Assembly (NCBI GenBank): GCA_023435705.1
Contig: JAEYRH010000003.1
Location: forward strand, 202,737-266,736
Direction of reading: 5' to 3'
DNA from: Bacillota bacterium
GTDB taxonomy: Bacteria > Bacillota > Clostridia > Christensenellales > UMGS416
Length of the DNA stretch: 64,000 nucleotides
The notes beneath the pieces are model-generated. The model ran no database searches. It was not told the DNA's origin and saw nothing but the letters and a program-made list of their open reading frames with translations. Made by a program: the position numbers and the translations under genes. Shown here piece after piece: positions 13,273 through 49,994 of the stretch (position 1 is the first letter of the stretch; the number at the start of each line of letters is the position of its first letter).

Positions 13273-13334
13273 ATTCCTCAAGCATGACTCGCCCTGCCAC
13301 TTCGTGGCATCCCCTACAGGAGGGAGTAAATTGC

Positions 13335-13904
13335 ATGATCACTGTCCGTCAGGCAATTGATGCGTTGGAAAACGCACCGGTCATCGCAGCAATCAAATCA
13401 CAGGAGTGTGCGCAAGCCGCTGCACGGTCGCCTGTTTCTGTGGCCTTTGTGCTTGGCGGCAGCATCCTGACCATGGATCGCATTATGGAGGAGCTGACCG
13501 GTGCCGGCAAGCTTGTCTTTTTGCACATGGATTTGATAGAGGGCATCGGCCGGGATGAAGCTGGGCTGATATTCGCTGCGCGGCATTGGCGGCCAACGGG
13601 CATCATCTCCACACGGGCGCAACTGGTAAAGGCAGCCCGAGAGCATGGGCTACTGGCTATCCAACGGGTTTTTCTGCTGGACTCAGGATCGATCAAGAGC
13701 GGAATCCAGCTGATCAGCCAGTGCAGCCCCGACTTTGTGGAGGTCATGCCCGGCGTGATTCCCAAGGCCATAGGCCAGTTCAAAGCTGCCGGCCGGCCGG
13801 TGATCGCCGGAGGGATGGTGACGGAGCGGGCCGAGGTGATTGATGCGCTGGCTGCCGGCGCTCTGGCGGTGTCTACCAGCAGCCGGGAGTTATGGAATGA
13901 GTAG
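13335..13904 (+). CDS. glpP: GlpP-family glycerol-3-phosphate responsive antiterminator homolog
   Basis: MITVRQAIDALENAPVIAAIKS..., FLHMDLIEGIGRDEAG and ISTR are typical of GlpP. RBS GGAGGGAG. No glp genes are nearby. Confidence 0.7.
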   Translation: MITVRQAIDALENAPVIAAIKSQECAQAAARSPVSVAFVLGGSILTMDRIMEELTGAGKLVFLHMDLIEGIGRDEAGLIFAARHWRPTGIISTRAQLVKAAREHGLLAIQRVFLLDSGSIKSGIQLISQCSPDFVEVMPGVIPKAIGQFKAAGRPVIAGGMVTERAEVIDALAAGALAVSTSSRELWNE

Positions 13905-15563: not shown

Positions 15564-15833
15564 GTGAGAGCGATTATTACCGTAGTCGGCCAAGACATGA
15601 TGGGCATCATCGCCCGTGTGTCAGCCATTTTGGCCGCCAATAATGTAAACATCCTTGATATCAGCCAATCGGTGCTGCAGGAGTTTTTCGCGATGGTGAT
15701 GCTGGTGGATCTGGCCAAGTGCGAAGCACCCTTTGCCGATTTACAAGCCAAACTGGAAGAGGGAGGCCGCGAGCTTGGCATGACGGTGCGCATCCAGCAT
15801 GAAGCGGTCTTCCAGGCGATGCACCGGATATAA
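15564..15833 (+). CDS. ACT-domain protein of the UPF0237 family
   Basis: GTG start 7 nt after GGAGGA gives (M)[37 protein letters not shown], about 89 aa. It is paired with the UPF0210 gene downstream. Confidence 0.75.
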
Positions 15834-15861
15834 GGATGCCGCAGAGCGGCAGGGGGAGTTT

Positions 15862-30167: not shown

Positions 30168-30230
30168 TCCCCCTCTGTCGCTGTTGCGGCATCCCCCCCT
30201 GCTAAGGGAGGGTGGGGAGGTTGCTTGATC
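30168..30230 (+). repeat. Copy of the module-1 double-hairpin intergenic repeat
   Basis: CCCCTCT-GTCGC-tgtt-GCGGC-ATCCCCCCCT-gcta-AGGGAGGGTGGGGAGGTTGCTTGATC aligns with 33071..33127, 45042..45095 and 47217..47272. Confidence 0.75.
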
Positions 30231-30244
30231 TTGATGTCAATGTA

Positions 30245-30268
30245 GGGGCCGGGCTCAGTACCGGCCCC
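30245..30268 (+). repeat. GGGGCCGG hairpin repeat (one of three copies)
   Basis: GTAGGGGCCGGgctcagtaCCGGCCCC. Near-identical copies lie at 46014..46036 and 49930..49952 in inverted orientation. Confidence 0.75.
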
Positions 30269-30397
30269 TTAACATAAGTACCATTTGCCAATACTTACCG
30301 CTTCAGCAACCCCAATCGCTTCTTCTGTCATATTGTGATATACACCCATGAATAATATAATGATGTATTGGTATTCAATCCATTCCGGAGGCAATCC

Positions 30398-32866: not shown

Positions 32867-33250
32867 TTACCCCATCCCCTTACCCCTTCCCCGAATTACA
32901 ATACGGCAACCGTCGGGCTTTCGGAGGGGAAGGGGAGTATCAGCAGGGCTTCGCCCTGCACCCACTGTCCCGTAGTGGTTGGGCTCCAGGTCGCAGGGGC
33001 GAGCAGCATTCGCAGAATGCATCCAGCCCGTCCTAGCCCGTCGTTCCAACCCGTCCCCGGCCCTGAAACTCCCCCTGTCGCCTCCGGCGACATCCCCCTC
33101 AATAGAGGGACAAGTATAGCTTGATCGGAGCTTCCTTGCCTCCCTCTATATCACCCCTTCTAGGGGTGACACCGCCGAAGGCGGTGGGGGTCAATGAGGG
33201 AGGTGGCGGCGAAGCCGCCGGAGGGAGTTTTCCGGTTTACATCTTCCCCC
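32867..33250 (+). repeat. Composite hairpin-dense repeat block between kbl and recJ (modules 3, 1 and 2 with a nested insert)
   Basis: At least eight perfect GC-rich stems. Examples: CCCCTTCCCC/GGGGAAGGGG, CAGGGC-ttc-GCCCTG, GTCGCC-tcc-GGCGAC, TCACCCC/GGGGTGA, CACCGCC-gaa-GGCGGTG, GGCGGC-gaa-GCCGCC. Homologous to 47160..47390. Confidence 0.8.
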
Positions 33251-33320
33251 GCATTTGGTATATTGTTTTCAATTCTTCGAGTCCTTTCACCTGTTTTCCC
33301 TTCGGGGAGAGGGAGCCGTT

Positions 33321-35828
33321 TTGCTGTTCCGATACCTGAAACGAAACCTGGGCGCCGAGCCGCAAGAGGCGGAGGCGCTTGCCCGCGAGCTGGGCGTGAT
33401 GAAGCCCACGGCGGAGATCCTGATCGGCCGGGGTGTGACCACGACTCAAGCTGGCCGCGCCTTCTTCGACCCCGGCATGGAGCGCCTGCGCGACCCGTTG
33501 GGCCTGATGGGCATGGGTGACGCAGTGAAGCGGATCAAAAGGGCCATCGCGGCCCATGAGAAGATCATCGTTTACGGCGATTATGACGTGGACGGCGTGT
33601 GTGCAACTTCCATTTTGGTTGAATATCTGACAGGCCTGGGAGCAGATTGCGACTATTACATCCCCAACCGCCATACAGAGGGTTATGGCCTGAACCGGGC
33701 GGCAGTGGAGTCATTCGCCGGGGCAGGGCTATTGGTGACGGTGGATTGCGGCGTGACCAACGGTGCGGAGGTAGCCCGCGCCCGCGAGCTGGGCATGGAT
33801 GTGATCGTGACCGACCACCACGAATGCCCCGATGTGCTGCCGGACTGCACAGCTGTCGTGAACCCCAAGCGGCCAGGTCAGGCATATGGCTTCTCCGGGC
33901 TTTGCGGTGCGGGCACGGCGCTGAAGCTGGTGCAGGCGCTGGGCAGGCGGGAGGCGGTGGAGCAGGTGCTGGACCTTGCGGCGCTGGCCACCGTGGCCGA
34001 CATTGTGCCGCTCACCGATGAAAACCGCGCCATCGTGCGCATGGGAATTGACCGCATCCAAGACGGAGAAAGGCCTGGCATCCAGGCGCTGAAGGAAGTC
34101 TCCGGGCTTGCCGGCAAGCCGGTGAAGGCCGGTAACATCGCGTTCATGCTGGCCCCGCGCATCAATGCCGGCGGGCGGATGGATTTCTCCCGCAAGTCGG
34201 TGGAACTGATGCTGACTCAAGACGCAGCAAGGGCCAGAGAGATTGCGGCGGAGCTCAACGACGACAATGCCGACCGTGTGCGTGTGGAAGAGGGCATTTT
34301 GGAGCAAGCCGTTGCGATGATTGAGCGTGGCTACTCTTTTTCGAAGCGCAGGGCCATTGTGCTCTATCAGCCCCATTGGAACACCGGCGTTACCGGAATT
34401 GTGGCCTCCAGGATTGTGGAGCGTTACCACCGGCCCACGTTCCTCTTTGGCGACGGTGAGGGGGCCTGTTACGGCTCCGGCCGCAGCGTGCCGGGCGTGC
34501 ACCTGTTTCAGGCGATGAAGGCCTGCTCTCAGTGGTTCCTGCGCTACGGTGGCCACGAGCAGGCTGCGGGCTGCGCTTTGCTGCCGGAGCATGTGGAGTT
34601 GTTTGCTGCCGAACTGGACAGATTCCTTACAGAGACTTATTCAGAGGACGTGTTCCTGCCGCTCCGGCAATATGACGCCCAACTTGCGGTTACTGAGCTA
34701 ACCATTGGCTTGGCGGAGGATATGGACAAACTGGAGCCCTGCGGCTTCGGCAACCCCCGCCCGGTCTTTTTGCTGAGGGATGTTGAGCTTGCCGGGCTGG
34801 CCCGCACCAAGGATGAAAAGCACCTGCGGATGCGCTTCGGAGGCGGATCCGGTGTGGAGGGCATTGCCTTCCGGCAGGGCGGCATGTTTGAAGCGCTCCA
34901 AGGTGCCTCAGCCTGCGACGCGCTGGTGGTGCCCGATGTGAACGACTGGATGGGCCGGCAGCGGGTGCAGGCTGTGGTGGAGCACATCCGCCCCGCTCAA
35001 GGGGAGGCCGGCGCAAGGGCTTTGATCGGTCAGGCCAGAGGAGCAGCGCAGGCGGCGCTGTTGAGGTTGCCAGAAGGGAATGTGCCTGCGGCGCCGCTTG
35101 ATTGGCAAACTGGTGTGTCCGCATTTTTGGATGCAGTGCGATGCTCTTGCTGGGGCGCCATGGCCCTTTGCCTGACTGAGACAAGCGCCACAGGCTTGCT
35201 GGAGGCGCTGCGGCATAGCGGGCTGTTGGAGCGGGTGTATGCCGGTGTGGGCGCTGCCCATCAGGCTGCCCGCCGTGAAAACGCGCTGGTGCTCGCGCCT
35301 GACCTAAAGGCTGTCCCTCTGGAGGGGTATGACCGTGTTTTCCTGTTTGACGGCCCCATTACCGGCGGATTGGCAAGTCATATCACCGGAAGATTGAACA
35401 ATGCCGGAAACTGCATTATAATTAGCGGTAACTCTGGTGGCGGCCTGCTGCCCGGTGATTTCTGCCGGGAAGAATTGCTCCGGGTTTTCCGGCTGATGAA
35501 GGTGGCTTTGCTCTCAAAGGTAGGCCCGGCAGGCCCCGCCGATTGGCGTTGGCTGGAGCGGGATGGCATTCCGCCGTGGCGTGCAGAGGTTTCGGCCCGG
35601 ATATTTACCGAGCTGGGGCTTTTGCTGGAACTGGACAAACCCATTTGGCTGCGGCCGGCGGAACCGGCTGCAAAGGCAGACCTCAACGACAGCTTGATTT
35701 ACAGGCGGTTGACCGAAACGATCAGGAGGTGCGGCGATGAATCTGAAGGACAAAGTGCGCTTGATACAGGACTTCCCGATGCCCGGCATCCGTTACCGGG
35801 ATATCACGACGCTGCTGAAGGACGGTGA
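33321..35828 (+). CDS. recJ: Single-stranded-DNA-specific exonuclease RecJ with a long C-terminal extension
   Basis: DHH motifs: IIVYGDYDVDGV, VTVDCG, VIVTDHH, and DHHA1 GGHEQAAG. Start uncertain: I chose TTG 33321 after GGGAGAGGGA, while the ORF track starts at 33255. Confidence 0.8.
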   Translation: MLFRYLKRNLGAEPQEAEALARELGVMKPTAEILIGRGVTTTQAGRAFFDPGMERLRDPLGLMGMGDAVKRIKRAIAAHEKIIVYGDYDVDGVCATSILVEYLTGLGADCDYYIPNRHTEGYGLNRAAVESFAGAGLLVTVDCGVTNGAEVARARELGMDVIVTDHHECPDVLPDCTAVVNPKRPGQAYGFSGLCGAGTALKLVQALGRREAVEQVLDLAALATVADIVPLTDENRAIVRMGIDRIQDGERPGIQALKEVSGLAGKPVKAGNIAFMLAPRINAGGRMDFSRKSVELMLTQDAARAREIAAELNDDNADRVRVEEGILEQAVAMIERGYSFSKRRAIVLYQPHWNTGVTGIVASRIVERYHRPTFLFGDGEGACYGSGRSVPGVHLFQAMKACSQWFLRYGGHEQAAGCALLPEHVELFAAELDRFLTETYSEDVFLPLRQYDAQLAVTELTIGLAEDMDKLEPCGFGNPRPVFLLRDVELAGLARTKDEKHLRMRFGGGSGVEGIAFRQGGMFEALQGASACDALVVPDVNDWMGRQRVQAVVEHIRPAQGEAGARALIGQARGAAQAALLRLPEGNVPAAPLDWQTGVSAFLDAVRCSCWGAMALCLTETSATGLLEALRHSGLLERVYAGVGAAHQAARRENALVLAPDLKAVPLEGYDRVFLFDGPITGGLASHITGRLNNAGNCIIISGNSGGGLLPGDFCREELLRVFRLMKVALLSKVGPAGPADWRWLERDGIPPWRAEVSARIFTELGLLLELDKPIWLRPAEPAAKADLNDSLIYRRLTETIRRCGDESEGQSALDTGLPDARHPLPGYHDAAEGR

Positions 35829-38587: not shown

Positions 38588-38600
38588 TTCAACTGTTTAA

Positions 38601-39731
38601 CTATTTCAACTTTGTTGTCGCAAGGCCTTTCCAACCTTCCACCTCGCAGGCTCCTTCTTCATTACTTCCGGTTGAAACTGCAGTGCCATCTGCTTTCAGG
38701 CCAACCACATGGCCTGACCCGGCTGTGATGGCGATGATGTTTGTCCAATCCTGTATGTTGCCTTCCCCAAACATGTTCTGCCCGGCGGCCACCACTGTGC
38801 CGTCTGCTTTCAGCCCATAGGAGCAGTACCCTCCGACGGCGATGGCGATGATGTCGCTCCAGGATTCCACATTGCACTCACCATCGTTGTTGTATCCGGT
38901 GGCAACCACGGTGCCGTCAGCCCTGAGCCCCAGCACGGTTCTTTCATTCGCCGCGATGGCTACAATTTTTGTCCACTTGCTCACGTTGCATTGCCCATAT
39001 TGATTGTTTCCTGTGGCAACCACTTTGCCATCCTTTTTCAAGCCAACTCCGAATCGTTCGCCGGCTGCGATGGCTATAATGCCCTTCCAGTTTTTTACCT
39101 TGTTGGGGTCAGAGCTCTTGTAATCGATGCCGTTTGACAAGACTGTTCCGGCAGCTTTCAACCCTATCACGGTATCATTTCCACCGGTTGATACCGCGAT
39201 GATTTTCTTCCACTTTTTCAGCGTGCGGCTCAAATAGCTTCTCTGCGATCCTGAGACCACAACGGTGCCATTGGATTGCAAGCCCACGACGTGAACATAT
39301 CCGGCTGATATTGCGACAATCTTGTTCCATTTGGCTGTGTTGATCCCATACTCCTTGTTGTTACCCGCTTGGACAACTTTCCCATTCTTGGTGATGGCAA
39401 ACGAGAAGTTCCCTGCGGCAATATTGCCCGCAAGCAGCCGGCGCGAGGCCTGCAATTTTGCCAAATCTGGTTTTGCCGTGGGTGTGGGTGTTGGCGCAAG
39501 CGTTGGAGATGCGGTGGGCTCCTGTGTCATTTCCAGCGTTTTGGTTGGAGCCACAGTGGGCAATAAGCTGGGAGCAGCCGTGTGTGAAGCGGTGGGAGAG
39601 GGGCCCATAGTTGCCGTTGGGGTGGGCTTCGCCACAGCGGGTTGGCACGCCGAAAGGAAGCAGGCGGCCAGCAGCAGAAATGCCGTCAATGCTGATGTTA
39701 GCATGGTGGATCTCTTTGACTTTGCACTCAT
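38601..39731 (-). CDS. Lipoprotein with about seven RCC1-like (RCC1_2-type) beta-propeller repeats
   Basis: Signal peptide plus lipobox (FLLLAAC), then a Pro/Thr-rich linker. Seven ~38-aa repeats follow, of the form W-x-x-I-[IV]-A-I-[AS]-x-G...GL[KR]xDGTVVxxG. It is full-length homologous to the C-terminal half of 39788..41869. Confidence 0.8.
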   Translation of the reverse strand: MSAKSKRSTMLTSALTAFLLLAACFLSACQPAVAKPTPTATMGPSPTASHTAAPSLLPTVAPTKTLEMTQEPTASPTLAPTPTPTAKPDLAKLQASRRLLAGNIAAGNFSFAITKNGKVVQAGNNKEYGINTAKWNKIVAISAGYVHVVGLQSNGTVVVSGSQRSYLSRTLKKWKKIIAVSTGGNDTVIGLKAAGTVLSNGIDYKSSDPNKVKNWKGIIAIAAGERFGVGLKKDGKVVATGNNQYGQCNVSKWTKIVAIAANERTVLGLRADGTVVATGYNNDGECNVESWSDIIAIAVGGYCSYGLKADGTVVAAGQNMFGEGNIQDWTNIIAITAGSGHVVGLKADGTAVSTGSNEEGACEVEGWKGLATTKLK

Positions 39732-39787
39732 GATTTCACCTCATATTCTTCTAGACTGTCTGGGCATTGGTGAGAAGTCAATTTGAT

Positions 39788-41869
39788 TTATTTCAGCCTT
39801 GTCGTTGCGAGTTTATTCCAACCGTCCACTTCACAGGCCCCTTCTTCGTTTGACCCGACTGCTACCGCGGCGCCATCGTGCCGCAGGCCAACCACATGCC
39901 CTGATCCGGCTGAGATGGCGATGATATCGGTCCATTTGTCTGTGTTGCGCTGGCCTAAATGGCCATCGCCCGCGGATATGACCGTGCCATCTGCCTTCAA
40001 CCCATAAGAACTGAAGTCACCCACGGCAACTGCTACGATGTCACGCCAGGCTTCCACGCTGCACTCTCCGTCGATGTTGTAACCTGTGGCCACCACCGTT
40101 CCGTCAGCCTTTAATCCTAGCACCGTCCTCGAGCTTGCCGCGATGGCAACGATATCTTTCCACTCGCCTACGTTGCATTGTCCATATTCATTGTTGCCTG
40201 TGGCCACCACCGTTCCGTCTGCCTTTAGCCCTATTCCAAACCCTTCACCGGCTGCGATGGCGACAATGTCTTTCCAGTTCTTTACTTTGTTTGGATCCGC
40301 GCTATCATAAAATATCCCGGTGGATACTACGGTGCCATCTGCTTTCAGGCCCATGATCACATCGTTGCCGCCAGCAGCTATTTCAACGATATTTTTCCAC
40401 TCTTTGGTATTCCTCTCAAAATCTGGCCTGCCGTGCCCGCCGGTTACGACTACGGTGCCATCGGAGCGCAATCCGGCAACGTGTACGAATCCTGTGGATA
40501 TAGCTACCATCTTGCTCCACTTGCTTGTATCGATTTGGTATTCCTTGATATTCCCAGCCTGGTGGACCTTCCCGTCTTTTGTGACGGCAAACGTGCAAAT
40601 CCCTGCAGCGATATTTCCTGCGATTAACCGACAGTTGGCTTGTAATTGGGATATGTCGGGATTCACCGTTGGTGCAGGGGTCGGGGTGGGTTCCGATGTT
40701 GGGGTGGGTGCGGCAGTTTGCGCAGGCGATGCTGTTGGTGTTGGCTTTGCCGATGCGACCAACTCCAGATCGGCAGAAGCCGGCTGCGCAGTGGTGGGTT
40801 GGCAGGCTGTGGTGAAGCAAGCCACAAGCAGGAGAATTGCCGTGATCACTGCAGCCAGCCGCGTAGAGGTGCTGGATTTTTCGCTCATAAAAACACCCCT
40901 TATTCTTTTTTCTGCGCTGGTCCTGTTGTGTTCCATTCCCATACCCATTACAGGCTTTACGCTTCCTGGCTGGCTGAAGAGCATCAGCAGTGTTGAGGCA
41001 TACTGCCTTTTTTCGTCATTGCCCATCTTTTTGACCACAGTGCTGTCACAAGACACTTCCATGTCCTGCTGCATTTGATGGGCAGCGAGCCAAACAACCG
41101 GGTTGAACCAATACACACATCTCAATACCATCAGCAACAAGGAAATGATGTGATCACCCCTTTTGTAGTGGGATAGCTCATGGCGGAAGATATGCTCCAA
41201 TGTCTCGGGATTGCGATGGCTCTCGCTTGGCAGCAACAGTATCGGTGCAACGCTGATGGAAAGAGCCGGTGTGGAGATGCCATTCAAGATTACAGGCCTT
41301 GGCCCATGGCGAATCCCCAACTCCAGCTTGAGCCTCTCAAACAGGCGCCGCTCTGCGGAGGGCAATGGCTGCTTGTTGCGCAGGATCGATGCGGAGAGCC
41401 TGAGGTGAACAAACGCGAACCAAGCGCATACCGAGATGATACCGACAAACCATATGGCTGGCAGCACATGCTCCAGATCCCGGGACCACCAACCTGGATC
41501 CGTATTGCGATTAACTTGTGGTATTGCCGGAGCATTCACCGGCATCGACTCATCTTTCGTAACGTTTTTCATTGTATTGGTGGCGGTTTCTTGTGAATTG
41601 GCAACTGGCAGAGCGTTGTTATGATTGGTGTGCTCGCTGCCAGCCTGCAACAATTGAGTGACTTGTTGTGTTTGTTGTGGCAGAGTGATCAGGTGGAACC
41701 CACCTTCGATGGTAACGGGCATTAACAACCGCAACAGCAGAAGGAACCACACTCCATATTGCATCGCGGCTGACATCTTGTTGCGAAACAGCGTGCGAAA
41801 GAGCAGGATTGCCAGATAAAGAACGGCAGAATAGACAGTAATCTCGGCAAGCGCCTCAAGAACCCTCAT
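39788..41869 (-). CDS. M56-family (BlaR1/MecR1-like) membrane zinc metalloprotease fused to an extracellular RCC1-like seven-repeat propeller
   Basis: Start at MRVLEALAEIT (GGGAG RBS), overlapping the blaI-like stop by 14 nt. Multi-TM N-terminus with FRHELSHYKRGDH (HExxH) and YWFNPVVW. Then a TM/lipobox-like segment (LLLVAC), a PT linker and seven propeller repeats. Confidence 0.85.
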   Translation of the reverse strand: MRVLEALAEITVYSAVLYLAILLFRTLFRNKMSAAMQYGVWFLLLLRLLMPVTIEGGFHLITLPQQTQQVTQLLQAGSEHTNHNNALPVANSQETATNTMKNVTKDESMPVNAPAIPQVNRNTDPGWWSRDLEHVLPAIWFVGIISVCAWFAFVHLRLSASILRNKQPLPSAERRLFERLKLELGIRHGPRPVILNGISTPALSISVAPILLLPSESHRNPETLEHIFRHELSHYKRGDHIISLLLMVLRCVYWFNPVVWLAAHQMQQDMEVSCDSTVVKKMGNDEKRQYASTLLMLFSQPGSVKPVMGMGMEHNRTSAEKRIRGVFMSEKSSTSTRLAAVITAILLLVACFTTACQPTTAQPASADLELVASAKPTPTASPAQTAAPTPTSEPTPTPAPTVNPDISQLQANCRLIAGNIAAGICTFAVTKDGKVHQAGNIKEYQIDTSKWSKMVAISTGFVHVAGLRSDGTVVVTGGHGRPDFERNTKEWKNIVEIAAGGNDVIMGLKADGTVVSTGIFYDSADPNKVKNWKDIVAIAAGEGFGIGLKADGTVVATGNNEYGQCNVGEWKDIVAIAASSRTVLGLKADGTVVATGYNIDGECSVEAWRDIVAVAVGDFSSYGLKADGTVISAGDGHLGQRNTDKWTDIIAISAGSGHVVGLRHDGAAVAVGSNEEGACEVDGWNKLATTRLK

Positions 41870-45041: not shown

Positions 45042-45095
45042 TCCCCCCTGCCCCTATGGGGGCATCCCCCCTTATCAAGGGAGGGTTGGGATTAG
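45042..45095 (+). repeat. Copy of the module-1 double-hairpin intergenic repeat
   Basis: CCCCCC-TGCCCC-tat-GGGGCA-TCCCCCCTT-atc-AAGGGAGGGTTGGG aligns with the copies at 30168, 33071 and 47217. Confidence 0.7.
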
Positions 45096-45128: not shown

Positions 45129-45938
45129 ATGCCCAATCAACTCGAATACACTTATGCCAAGTTGATCCAACTAGCTTCCACCCTGCCCGGTGTGCAGTCC
45201 ATCGGCCGAAGCGGCGGAAGGGCGCTGCCGGCATCTCCAACTGATGGCGACATTGACATCTTCCTGTATTGCGATGAAATTCCATCGCGTGACGCCCGGA
45301 AAGCCATACTTGACAGCGTGAGCGCTGAACTTGACACCGCTGCAAAAGTCGGCGTGTTCAGCGGCGGCCGCTGGGGCGTTGGTGACTTTGCCAGCATCCA
45401 GGGTGTGGAGACATGGCTCATGTATTTCACCTTGGAGCAGGCTGCCGCCGAGGTGGATGCTGTGCTGCGTGGAGAGCAGCCGGACCGGGAGGGCGGCTTC
45501 TATCCTACGGGCCGCTGCGCGATGTACTTGGGCATGGAGGTGCTGCTTGACCGGAGTGGGTTCCTGCGAGGAATGAAAGAGAAGATCGCTCATTATCCGG
45601 AGGCGCTTGCCGAAAAGCTTGTGCGGCACCATTTATCTGCACTAAACGACACCGAAGACCTTGAGCGCGCTGTGGCCCGCAAAGACCCGCTGCTCTACCA
45701 CTTTGCTCTGGATATTGCCTTGGATCATTTCCTGCAGGCGCTGTTTGCCCGGAACCGTGTGTTTTTCCCCAGCCGGAAACGGTCACTGGAGCATATCGCC
45801 GGTTTTGCGTCCAAGCCAGCGGATTGTGAGCAAAGGATCCTGGATGTGATCCGTCTTGGGAGCACCGCAGAGGGGATTGGGCAATCCTGCGACATGTGGA
45901 GCGGTTTGACAAGCGACCTCAAGGTATTGTGCCATTGA
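45129..45938 (+). CDS. Nucleotidyltransferase-fold (Pol-beta superfamily) protein, possibly DUF4037-like
   Basis: GRSGGRALPASPTDGDIDIFLY fits the G[SG]-x(9-13)-DxD NTase signature. The C-terminal half is helical. The family assignment is tentative. Confidence 0.5.
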   Translation: MPNQLEYTYAKLIQLASTLPGVQSIGRSGGRALPASPTDGDIDIFLYCDEIPSRDARKAILDSVSAELDTAAKVGVFSGGRWGVGDFASIQGVETWLMYFTLEQAAAEVDAVLRGEQPDREGGFYPTGRCAMYLGMEVLLDRSGFLRGMKEKIAHYPEALAEKLVRHHLSALNDTEDLERAVARKDPLLYHFALDIALDHFLQALFARNRVFFPSRKRSLEHIAGFASKPADCEQRILDVIRLGSTAEGIGQSCDMWSGLTSDLKVLCH

Positions 45939-46013: not shown

Positions 46014-46036
46014 GGGCCGGGACGGAGCCCGGCCCC
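46014..46036 (-). repeat. GGGGCCGG hairpin repeat (copy co-oriented with the upstream coat F gene)
   Basis: The minus strand reads CAGTAGGGGCCGGGCTCCGTCCCGGCCCGC, nearly identical to the minus-strand reading at 49930..49955. Confidence 0.75.
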
Positions 46037-46065
46037 TACTGTTTTGTGGTCCGCGACCGGATATG

Positions 46066-47117: not shown

Positions 47118-47159
47118 AACATGGATCAGGTTGGACAACTACAGTTGGATAGGGGACTA

Positions 47160-47390
47160 CTTGCCTCCCTCTTGAGGGAGGTGCCGCCAAAAGCGGTGGA
47201 GGGAGTTTCACGAACTCACCCTGTCATCTTCGATGACATCCCCCTCAGGAGGGGGACAAGTGTAGCTCGATCAATCTGTTCGTTGACGAGCTTGCTTCCC
47301 TCTTGGCCCCCCTTGCTGCATCCGCAGCTGTCCCCCCACAAGTGTGTGGGGGGAAGGGTAGGTGGCAACAAAGCCGCCGCAGGGAGTAAA
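47160..47390 (+). repeat. Composite repeat: module 2 + module 1 + a second, diverged module 2
   Basis: 47160..47208 reads CTTGCCTCCCTC-tt-GAGGGAGG...GGAGGGAGTTT. 47217..47272 is module 1. 47283..47390 is collinear with 33128..33232 and includes the stem CCCCCCACA-agtg-TGTGGGGGG. Confidence 0.8.
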
Positions 47391-49796: not shown

Positions 49797-49994
49797 GTTG
49801 GGAACTAGTAGCGGGTGGGTATGGGCTGGATGCACACTGCGTATGGCTTGGCGTGGCCTTCGGCCACTGCCTGCCCAAGCAACCCGGCTGCTCATATATG
49901 CATCCAAAAACTCTGCCCTAATAGGAAACGGGCCGGGACTGAGCCCGGCCCCTACTGATTACTGACTACTTGGTACTGACTACTGTTTACTTGC
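49797..49994 (-). repeat. Repeat block in the pgk-tpiA spacer: heptamer array, GGGGCCGG hairpin and a module-3-like segment
   Basis: 49953..49994 holds six tandem heptamers, TACTGAT TACTGAC TACTTGG TACTGAC TACTGTT TACTTGC, the last running into the pgk stop. 49930..49952 is the hairpin GGGCCGGG-actgag-CCCGGCCC. 49797..49844 shares TGCATCCAGCCC plus flanks with 33008..33051. Confidence 0.75.

Follow-up and report, generated by a model that had tools for sequence, protein, structure and literature searches.

The DNA analysed here is a 64-kb window from a Bacillota assembly (contig JAEYRH010000003.1), and our subject is a family of short, strongly structured repeats in its intergenic spacers, with clusters near 33 and 47 kb. 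The same family recurs in other Clostridia, where its units lie beside genes for a small DUF559 protein. A preliminary description, made from the letters of the window alone, had recognized an element of the form CTTGCCTCCCTC..GAGGGAGG..hairpin..GGAGGGAGTTT in both clusters, and the elements stand in the sequence as described (33135-33231 and 47160-47208). Read on the G-rich strand, a unit is about 46 nt long and consists of the head ACTTG, an 8-nt pyrimidine arm (x), a first loop (loop 1, typically 2-8 nt), a purine arm (x'), a second hairpin (h) that begins with TG and ends with CG or CA, and an 8-nt purine tail. The x arm, x' arm and tail read CCTCCCTC/GAGGGAGG/GGAGGGAG in type 1 and TCCCCCTC/GAGGGGGA/AGGGGGAG in type 2.

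At 33 kb, the outer unit is of type 1 and lies on the plus strand at 33135-33227 (module 2 of the preliminary description; repeat family D15; matched at 33139-33227 by a scan for the class II triplex layout discussed below). It comprises a CTTG head, the x arm CCTCCCTC (33139-33146), a loop 1 that houses a nested unit (33147-33195), the x' arm GAGGGAGG (33196-33203), the hairpin TGGCGGC-GAA-GCCGCCG (33204-33220) and the mirror tail GGAGGGAG (33220-33227), followed by TTTT. The arm sequences had been given correctly, with coordinates one base too high. The hairpin that follows the arms had been said to vary and yet to pair in both copies, which it does (GGCGGC-GAA-GCCGCC in one, GCCGC-CAAAA-GCGGT in the other). 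A linker of 19 nt (33116-33134) separates the outer unit from a minus-strand type-2 unit in head-to-head arrangement, at 33069-33115 (module 1; 41.6 bits, E = 4.3e-10; inverted pair I1), the x arm of which is partly decayed.

The 47-kb cluster begins with a simple type-1 unit on the plus strand at 47159-47205, which reads ACTTG-CCTCCCTC-TT-GAGGGAGG-TGCCGCCAAAAGCGGTG-GAGGGAG, then TTT (52.3 bits, E = 2.5e-13), and is found in identical form in a Logan contig (L108). Tail-to-tail with it, across about 9 nt, is a minus-strand type-2 unit at 47215-47261 (47.5 bits, E = 7e-12). The third, diverged copy that had been noticed is a decayed type-1 unit on the plus strand at 47290-47386 (module 2'; the third copy of family D15, at 72%), with x CTTCCCTC, x' AAGGGTAGG, tail CAGGGAG and, as h, GGCAAC-AAA-GCCGCC with two A.C mismatches. 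Its loop 1 contains a different inner element, a unit in the opposite orientation (47307-47354, minus strand) that was found by both the strict architecture scan and the class II scan and reads CCCCCCACA-CACTT-GTGGGGGG-ACA-GCTGC-GGAT-GCAGC-AA-GGGGGG.

These clusters had been interpreted as two modules in shuffled order. Module 1 (33064-33116 and 47213-47272) is instead the reverse complement of the module-2 type: an inverted-repeat search found 33064-33116 to be 74% complementary to 47158-47210 (pair I1), and the model matches fall on opposite strands. The apparent shuffling is therefore one family in alternating orientation, namely a head-to-head pair in the order minus, plus at 33 kb and a plus, minus, plus series at 47 kb. 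More generally, units occur mostly as inverted doublets of two types, either head-to-head or tail-to-tail; both type-1/type-2 and type-1/type-3 doublets were observed, and the tails of doublet partners are able to pair with each other.

The 49-nt insert between the 33-kb arms (33147-33195) consists of two perfect hairpins, as had been reported, TCACCCC/GGGGTGA (33151-33157 / 33163-33169) and CACCGCC-GAA-GGCGGTG (33170-33186). Inside the outer loop, 33151-33190 is matched by our covariance model R1 (23.1 bits, E = 1.6e-4), which was made from 12 units among the other copies and holds no information from this insert; this marks the insert as a full unit, one whose arms differ in sequence (TCACCCC / GGGGTGA / hairpin / GGGGTCA). 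This inner unit (33151-33193, plus strand, TCACCCC-TTCTA-GGGGTGA-CACCGCC-GAA-GGCGGTG-GGGGTCA) has the same orientation as the outer one. The insertion had been considered specific to this locus, but further copies of the whole nested doublet, inner unit included, are present in another species: the metagenome-assembled genome (MAG) OH_CBlB_68 has three (two in locus L094 and one in L047), with 81-85% identity to the 33-kb doublet. Among these nested doublets, the head-to-head linker ranges from 20 to 37 nt, and the outer hairpin shows a compensatory change from GGCGGC/GCCGCC to GGCAGC/GCTGCC. The only coding stretch that aligns between the window and an OH_CBlB_68 locus (L030) is about 72% identical. 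Judged from these alignments, the 33-kb copy is a member of a subfamily copied as a complete nested form. At other loci, such as L017 and L094, hairpins are nested within h. Thus, of the earlier proposal of a mosaic family resembling BIME/REP elements, the mosaic, self-nesting and intergenic character and the alternating doublets stand, and the two modules, the local insertion and the likely enzyme do not.

The similarity of the window copies survives proper testing. The family pattern has three matches in the window as compared with 0.00 in 100 shuffles, a sequence-agnostic architecture scan finds five loci where 0.04 are expected (100 local shuffles), and the covariance model returns the E values given above; all three exclude chance. 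In addition, single-strand folding of the 33-kb and 47-kb regions gives z = -7.7 with a nearest-neighbour method that models only Watson-Crick and G.U pairs and no triplex.

A structurally constrained family in Clostridia

In our search beyond the window, the modules were found to occur widely elsewhere. Among the matches listed, a degenerate pattern of the family matched more than 107 stretches of GTDB species genomes, nearly all of them from Clostridia, with hosts that include Oscillospiraceae, Acutalibacteraceae, Faecousia, Gallimonas, the cultured Pseudoflavonifractor phocaeensis, two copy-rich “Bacillota” MAGs, and a few Roseburia, Agathobacter and Selenomonadaceae records. The family is thus spread across Oscillospirales, with matches also in Lachnospiraceae and Selenomonadaceae assemblies. 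Viral contigs were not matched by the pattern, and about ten matches in other phyla were set aside, as they have neither hairpin nor tail and look like chance. Model R1 identified 206 units in 0.81 Mb of pattern-matched loci, with E values down to 1e-19, and none in 131 kb of unrelated loci. Against Rfam, neither the window nor 18 loci gave a match at gathering score, and at E up to 10 the matches were at chance level only.

In four loci of low-GC Acutalibacteraceae/Clostridia MAGs (L034, L038, L060, and L072), a block of about 300 nt stands beside unrelated genes in different genomes; it is made of an identical 55-nt unit, a tail-to-tail partner, and an upstream GGGGCTGTAAAAAACAGCCCC hairpin, and the unit is 100% conserved although the flanks are only about 75% identical. 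One could suppose that the copies have no function as a family and are unrelated G+C-rich terminator hairpins, alike by chance or by compositional convergence, since their arms are of low complexity (runs of C/T and G/A) and hairpins are common in spacers. The E values and the empty background of the model search, the conserved head, the shuffle controls, and the identical 55-nt units beside unrelated genes leave this explanation with practically no credibility. In Gallimonas loci, arrays of units give rise to false open reading frames (ORFs; ORF cluster 2). The units matter for annotation, as a source of spurious ORFs, C-terminal extensions and broken MAG assemblies.

The family is constrained in structure more than in sequence at its second hairpin. 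Overall, 96% of cells in the alignment are paired, compared with 84% after shuffling and about 61% after sliding, and 10 of 14 pairs show changes on both sides. Hairpin h takes 76 distinct versions in a set of 89 units, and its variable part is 90% Watson-Crick paired. Its length, which corresponds to loop 2 of the layout described below, is 13-43 nt with a median of 21 (13-45 nt is also given). On the G-rich strand, the loops of h are most often GAA (26), AAA (13) or GCA (8) and never TTC, and at the foot of h a T.G wobble is conserved (83 G.T versus 6 A.C).

The tail is a mirror image of the unit's own purine arm. With one register fixed for all units, the two agree at a mean of 7.43 out of 8 positions, while the best direct repeat in any register reaches 6.57 of 8; the mirror reading is better in 146 units, the direct reading in 2. 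All 16 arm types obey this rule, as exemplified by the arm/tail pairs GAGGGAGG/GGAGGGAG, GAGGGGGA/AGGGGGAG, GAGGGGGG/GGGGGGAG, GAGGAAGG/GGAAGGAG and GAGGGAGC/TGAGGGAG, with triple covariation at three sites. A strand that carries a pyrimidine arm, the purine arm complementary to it and a mirrored purine domain has the design of a class II (purine-motif) intrastrand triplex, a class defined by its domain order and by the triads C-G*G, T-A*A and T-A*T (PMC4666352). The units have this order (pyrimidine, purine, 3' mirror domain), and a frequent A-to-T variant of the tail is the permitted T-A*T triad. Their loops depart from the short ones of that class, as loop 2 is a hairpin of 13-43 nt and loop 1 extends to 49 nt at 33147-33195. 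From the layout, we infer that the hairpin stem may be read by the tail via the C-G*G, T-A*A and T-A*T triads in this variant as well. Two other accounts of the tail were rejected: a target-site duplication (the tail as a duplicate of x' flanking an inserted hairpin), for which the direct register varies by type while the mirror register is constant, and a G-quadruplex as a general rule, for which the GAGGGAGC/TGAGGGAG type (27 units) has too few G-tracts.

The setting of the units bears on whether they act as DNA or as RNA. They are intergenic and use divergent, convergent and tandem spacers in both orientations; by rough ORF-based gene calls, 11 units in tandem spacers have the same orientation as the genes and 16 the opposite, which is no clear bias, and the distance to the start codon is not fixed. 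The absence of an orientation bias and of a fixed distance argues against a dedicated RNA leader, and a dedicated 5' leader was rejected on these grounds together with the use of all spacer types. It could still be argued that the units are cis elements at the RNA level, that is, hairpins that stabilize untranslated regions or terminate transcription, or a switch in which x pairs with either x' or the tail, the latter serving as a Shine-Dalgarno sequence. The GNRA/GNA-type loops, the conserved wobble at the foot of h and the T-run after the tail in the window copies are what one would expect of such elements. By contrast, doublet partners lie on opposite strands, divergent and convergent spacers are used too, and the 47-kb units are located past a terminator-like hairpin of a minus-strand gene. 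In addition, the tail obeys a mirror rule where alternative pairing would need a direct-repeat rule, purine-motif triplexes do not form in RNA (PMC4666352), and there is the lack of an Rfam match described above. We therefore regard an RNA-level role as rather unlikely.

Orthologous spacers, which an earlier reading had proposed to check for invariance, are not invariant. Ten strains of one species encode an identical DUF559 protein beside glyQS, with spacers of 111, 158 or 205 nt, corresponding to 0, 1 or 2 additional 47-nt partial units; in one of the ten, the orthologous downstream unit carries a different hairpin. In another species, 49 nt have been gained or lost. For the window itself, the GH4-ADH spacer is syntenic in two relatives at about 80% nucleotide identity, and the presence, type and strand of its units all differ among the three. 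This spacer was used because the 33-kb spacer is not comparable: orthologs of kbl (86% identity) lack synteny with recJ. A metagenome scan for RecJ retrieved relatives at 54% identity or less and no orthologous spacers, and in exact-protein look-ups the kbl protein and protein P0001 were unmatched while the GNAT protein led only to the identical strain.

DUF559 genes beside the units

When the ORFs of unit-bearing loci were clustered, the recurring family encoded a DUF559 protein of about 120 amino acids (PF04480, E = 4e-28). The other clusters consisted of ABC-type genes and of spurious ORFs across repeat arrays, and no transposase family was found around the units in this clustering. All 12 Clostridial lineages examined have a unit no more than about 190 nt from the DUF559 gene, usually just upstream or on both sides. 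In the six lineages that were selected by the repeat pattern, this holds on both sides of the gene in five; in the six selected by the protein (46-93% identity, including Sporobacter termitidis DSM 10068), a unit stands close upstream in every one. In five of the latter, a unit in G orientation ends 5-45 nt before the start codon and is usually the inner member of a head-to-head pair, and the sixth (P0245) has upstream only an inverted unit, at a distance of about 100 nt, plus a downstream pair. In several lineages, an inverted unit is found at the 3' end of the gene or supplies its last codons. In the best-sampled cases, the tail of the upstream unit is the Shine-Dalgarno sequence of the gene (GGAGGGAGAGAAA-ATG), and the inverted unit itself constitutes the final 16 codons (..SLPQSASQTAPSSEGAE).

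Two of these loci are of note for their arrays. In OH_CBlB_68 (L008, 6485-6920), the DUF559 gene lies in a cluster of six units and has an in-frame TAG in its conserved ERKLWY motif, reflecting either a pseudogene or an assembly error. In Sporobacter termitidis DSM 10068 (L155, 1095-1591), at least seven alternating units with a 171-nt period follow the gene, and the array is read through by a called 317-amino-acid ORF that is probably spurious.

A DUF559 gene also lies next to repeats in Escherichia coli K-12. The stop codon of ycjD falls inside a degenerate hairpin of the BoxC repeat (also named PIT or TMECO, compared below), and this hairpin is the degenerate inverted partner of TMECO no. 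9, located 168 nt downstream. Such proximity would be expected for about 0.2% of genes (an estimate from 18 TMECO loci in 4.6 Mb). At the other end of the gene (L154, 758-802), the GTG start codon of ycjD and a GAGG are within the 3' arm of a perfect 17-bp hairpin after sapF, so that a stem likewise encloses the ribosome-binding site of ycjD. Residues D50, E61, D63 and H67 (D, E-x-D, H) of the DUF559 protein do not vary between Clostridia, E. coli and Neisseria. Its nearest solved structure is 3HRL, which is uncharacterised, and a published classification puts DUF559 in a clade with Vsr and a homing endonuclease of a group I intron (PMC3424549). As far as we searched the literature, a link between DUF559 and repeats across phyla (Clostridia and E. 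coli) has not been described; the link is an association only, and the enzyme a candidate partner.

We give about an even chance to a reading at the DNA level, in which the units are REPIN-like repeats and their folded single strand is the substrate or a landmark of the candidate DUF559 nuclease. A unit would act when its DNA is single-stranded, during replication, repair or transcription, and would fold into its hairpins with the tail docked as a third strand, or pair its tail with that of its partner. The folded doublet could then serve as a substrate or landmark for a small Vsr-like PD-(D/E)xK nuclease of the DUF559 family, encoded elsewhere in the genome between or beside units of its own. 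The repair or recombination that follows a nick would duplicate some units and delete, convert or rearrange others, with tandem gain and loss and local instability as the outcome. This would parallel the REPIN-RAYT systems (RAYT, REP-associated tyrosine transposase) with a different class of enzyme. The copies in the window may be non-autonomous passengers of spacers, with possible side effects such as the use of a purine tract as a ribosome-binding site. One idea, suggested by their arrangement and by a shared AGAGAAAATG at one locus, is that gene-less tail-to-tail doublets are internal-deletion derivatives of a DUF559-bearing doublet.

Several observations weigh against this DNA-level reading. 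No DUF559 gene is present within the 64-kb window, and the single DUF559 locus per species, which fits a RAYT-like partner, fits equally a gene that uses the repeat as its leader and terminator. The wobble at the foot of h and the tail as a Shine-Dalgarno sequence suit a role in RNA. Independent arm types are few (about 6 to 16) and of low complexity, so that Watson-Crick pairing between x and the tail (6-7 bp) is also possible, and the inner unit at 33 kb (GGGGTGA ... GGGGTCA) can just as well be read as a direct repeat. Furthermore, TMECO has been described as without a link to mobile elements (Holder et al., 2015; PMC4666352).

The position of the units around the DUF559 gene allows two further explanations. 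If the units act as RNA, the DUF559 link might exist only because the unit is the leader of that gene, with its tail as the ribosome-binding site in GGAGGGAGAGAAA-ATG, as is likewise the case for two genes of the window; given the points raised above against RNA elements, we consider this improbable. Alternatively, DUF559 may be a selfish gene of the homing type, or a gene that has landed in repeats, with the units as its target or landing site and not its passengers, and with host recombination, slippage and template switching at hairpins as the source of their spread and variation. The homing endonuclease in the DUF559/Vsr clade (PMC3424549) is in keeping with this, as are the position of the gene exactly between the tails of a doublet, the in-frame stop in the OH_CBlB_68 copy, and strain differences that are tandem gains and losses of 47-49 nt, typical of slippage. 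Each DUF559 protein, however, occupies one conserved locus per species across many samples, and slippage alone does not explain near-identical doublets at unrelated loci and in unrelated genomes, which makes a homing-type origin quite unlikely in our view.

Other units and repeats of the window

In addition to the two clusters, the window contains solo units, all on the minus strand. Two are of a G-run subtype (family D19), at 45044-45086 (CCCTCCCTT / AAGGGGGG / GGGGGGA; 24.9 bits), 40 nt upstream of an ATG at 45129, and at 30169-30221 (15.3 bits), which abuts the stop codon of the upstream gene and is missing from the orthologous spacer in L134 according to the spacer alignment. The third (13288-13331; 28.2 bits, E = 4.7e-6) presents, on the plus strand, the complement of its x arm (GGAGGGAG) 8 nt before an ATG at 13336 and therefore doubles as a ribosome-binding site. 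A half-unit on the plus strand at 15823-15858, with the hairpin TGCCGC-AGA-GCGGCA and the tail GGGGGAG, lies in a very short spacer of a co-directional gene pair; its tail is 4 nt before an ATG, an apparent ribosome-binding site. Near the 33-kb cluster, the class II scan, which is sequence-agnostic, found a BoxC-like motif on the minus strand at 32870-32932, GGGGAAGGGG-TAA-GGGGATGGGG, with a long loop 1 and a short loop 2, closer to the BoxC form. A few bases past the tail and T-run of the 33-kb unit, and upstream of a recJ-like gene, there is a good match to a sigma-70-like promoter (33236-33264, plus strand; TTTACA-17-TATATT with an extended TG). The probable start of the recJ-like gene is a TTG at 33321, preceded by GAGGGAG.

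A second, unrelated family is REP-like, with GTAG followed by a G+C-rich palindrome (GTAGGGGCCGGGCTCAGTACCGGCCCC), at 30242-30270 (plus), 46014-46039 (minus) and 49927-49955 (minus); it also occurs in the orthologous spacer of L134 and at 8 other loci (pattern GTAGGGGCSGG). A third repeated module of 34 nt (33007-33040 and 49812-49845, inverted, 76% complementary) shares spacers with the triplex-type units. In coding DNA, a large gene region on the minus strand (38600-40550) has a periodicity of 114 nt (38 amino acids) with at least nine diverged repeats (families D4-D7) and probably encodes a repeat-domain surface protein. Three pairs of 300-nt segments (45-344/1442-1741, 19041-19340/21802-22101, and 38602-38901/39789-40088) are 70-75% identical, which points to tandem paralogous genes or domains.

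Comparison with known repeat systems

Our literature searches on the motif, on REP elements in Oscillospiraceae, and on DUF559 with repeats returned nothing direct; it was the string of E. coli BoxC that led to a relevant study (PMC4666352). Like REP, BIME and REPIN elements (Bertels and Rainey, 2011; PMC3116915), the Clostridial units are short, structured, intergenic repeats that form alternating doublets of two types and clusters, vary in copy number and presence, and combine a gene flanked at a single locus with many gene-less doublets. As in REPINs, the inverted doublet is the repeated entity, with whole doublets conserved between loci and genomes. By contrast, a REP is one imperfect palindrome of 20-40 nt with a GTAG head, whereas the units here have an ACTTG head and three domains (hairpin, hairpin, and mirror tail), and the gene they flank encodes a PD-(D/E)xK DUF559 nuclease, not an HUH Y1 transposase. 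The possibility that they form an ordinary REP/REPIN system, with a RAYT (an IS200/IS605-like Y1 transposase) encoded elsewhere in the genome, would fit the REPIN-like organization in inverted doublets, and the separate GTAG-headed palindromes in the window suggest that a RAYT may be in the genome. In 0.99 Mb of unit-bearing DNA, however, no IS200/RAYT-like ORF was found by tblastn at E < 2 (with an IS200 TnpA query, a weak test), and the gene that recurs beside the units is DUF559. Together with the absence of GTAG from the head and the three-domain layout, this renders an ordinary RAYT system very unlikely.

MITE-like and mosaic repeats, such as pneumococcal BOX and RUP and the Correia elements of Neisseria, are modular, nest or form mosaics, fold strongly, and are located in spacers. 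The Clostridial units differ from MITEs in that a mirror purine domain defines the unit; no transposase of an insertion sequence family is associated with them, and no terminal inverted repeats with target-site duplications were identified, in loci that offered no pair of empty and filled sites to define the ends.

Intrastrand triplex repeats of the BoxC, PIT or TMECO kind occur in E. coli and other bacteria, and knowledge of those in E. coli goes back to the 1990s. There are 23 copies in strain MG1655, intergenic and without strand bias, in which every type A has an inverted type B as its partner; triplexes were observed to form in vitro by circular dichroism and nuclear magnetic resonance, and the loci show raised local rearrangement (PMC4666352). 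No enzyme, origin or mode of spread was named for TMECO by Holder et al. (2015; PMC4666352). The Clostridial units resemble these repeats in their three consecutive domains with G/C-rich arms of the CCCTC/GAGGG type (Hoyne et al., 2000; Holder et al., 2015), their intergenic location without strand bias, their two types as inverted pairs, the variability of their loci between strains, and the adjacent DUF559 gene, which in E. coli is ycjD by TMECO no. 9. They differ in loop 2, which is a hypervariable hairpin of 13-45 nt in Clostridia and 3 nt (TTA or CCG) in BoxC, in a loop 1 that may hold a complete nested unit, in arms of 8 nt as opposed to 9-10 nt, and in the conserved ACTTG head; the triplex is here deduced from layout, with arms such as CCTCCCTC / GAGGGAGG in the window that are not those of TMECO. 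Among the loci scanned, the TMECO consensus CCCTCNCCC-N3-6-GGGNGAGGG-N3-GGGNGAGGG was found at L153 and L154, both from E. coli, and at none of the 152 others. Finders of the ITxF type would miss the Clostridial units because of their limits on connecting loops, which are 1-6 nt in ITxF and 0-10 nt in Hoyne et al.

Overall, BoxC/TMECO, not REP, is the known family closest to the Clostridial units in domain layout and arrangement. Going further, DUF559 proteins (YcjD and its Clostridial relatives) may be the cognate structure-specific nucleases of class II triplex repeats, with BoxC/TMECO and the Clostridial variant as branches of one ancient repeat-plus-enzyme system. We put this forward as a tentative proposal that is somewhat doubtful at present; if true, a cognate DUF559 system would explain the genomic instability reported at TMECO loci. 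In any case, the three-domain design of BoxC is also found in gut Clostridia, as a richer, nestable and hairpin-bearing variant, and the adjacency of DUF559 in both lineages provides a concrete candidate for a partner that can be tested directly.

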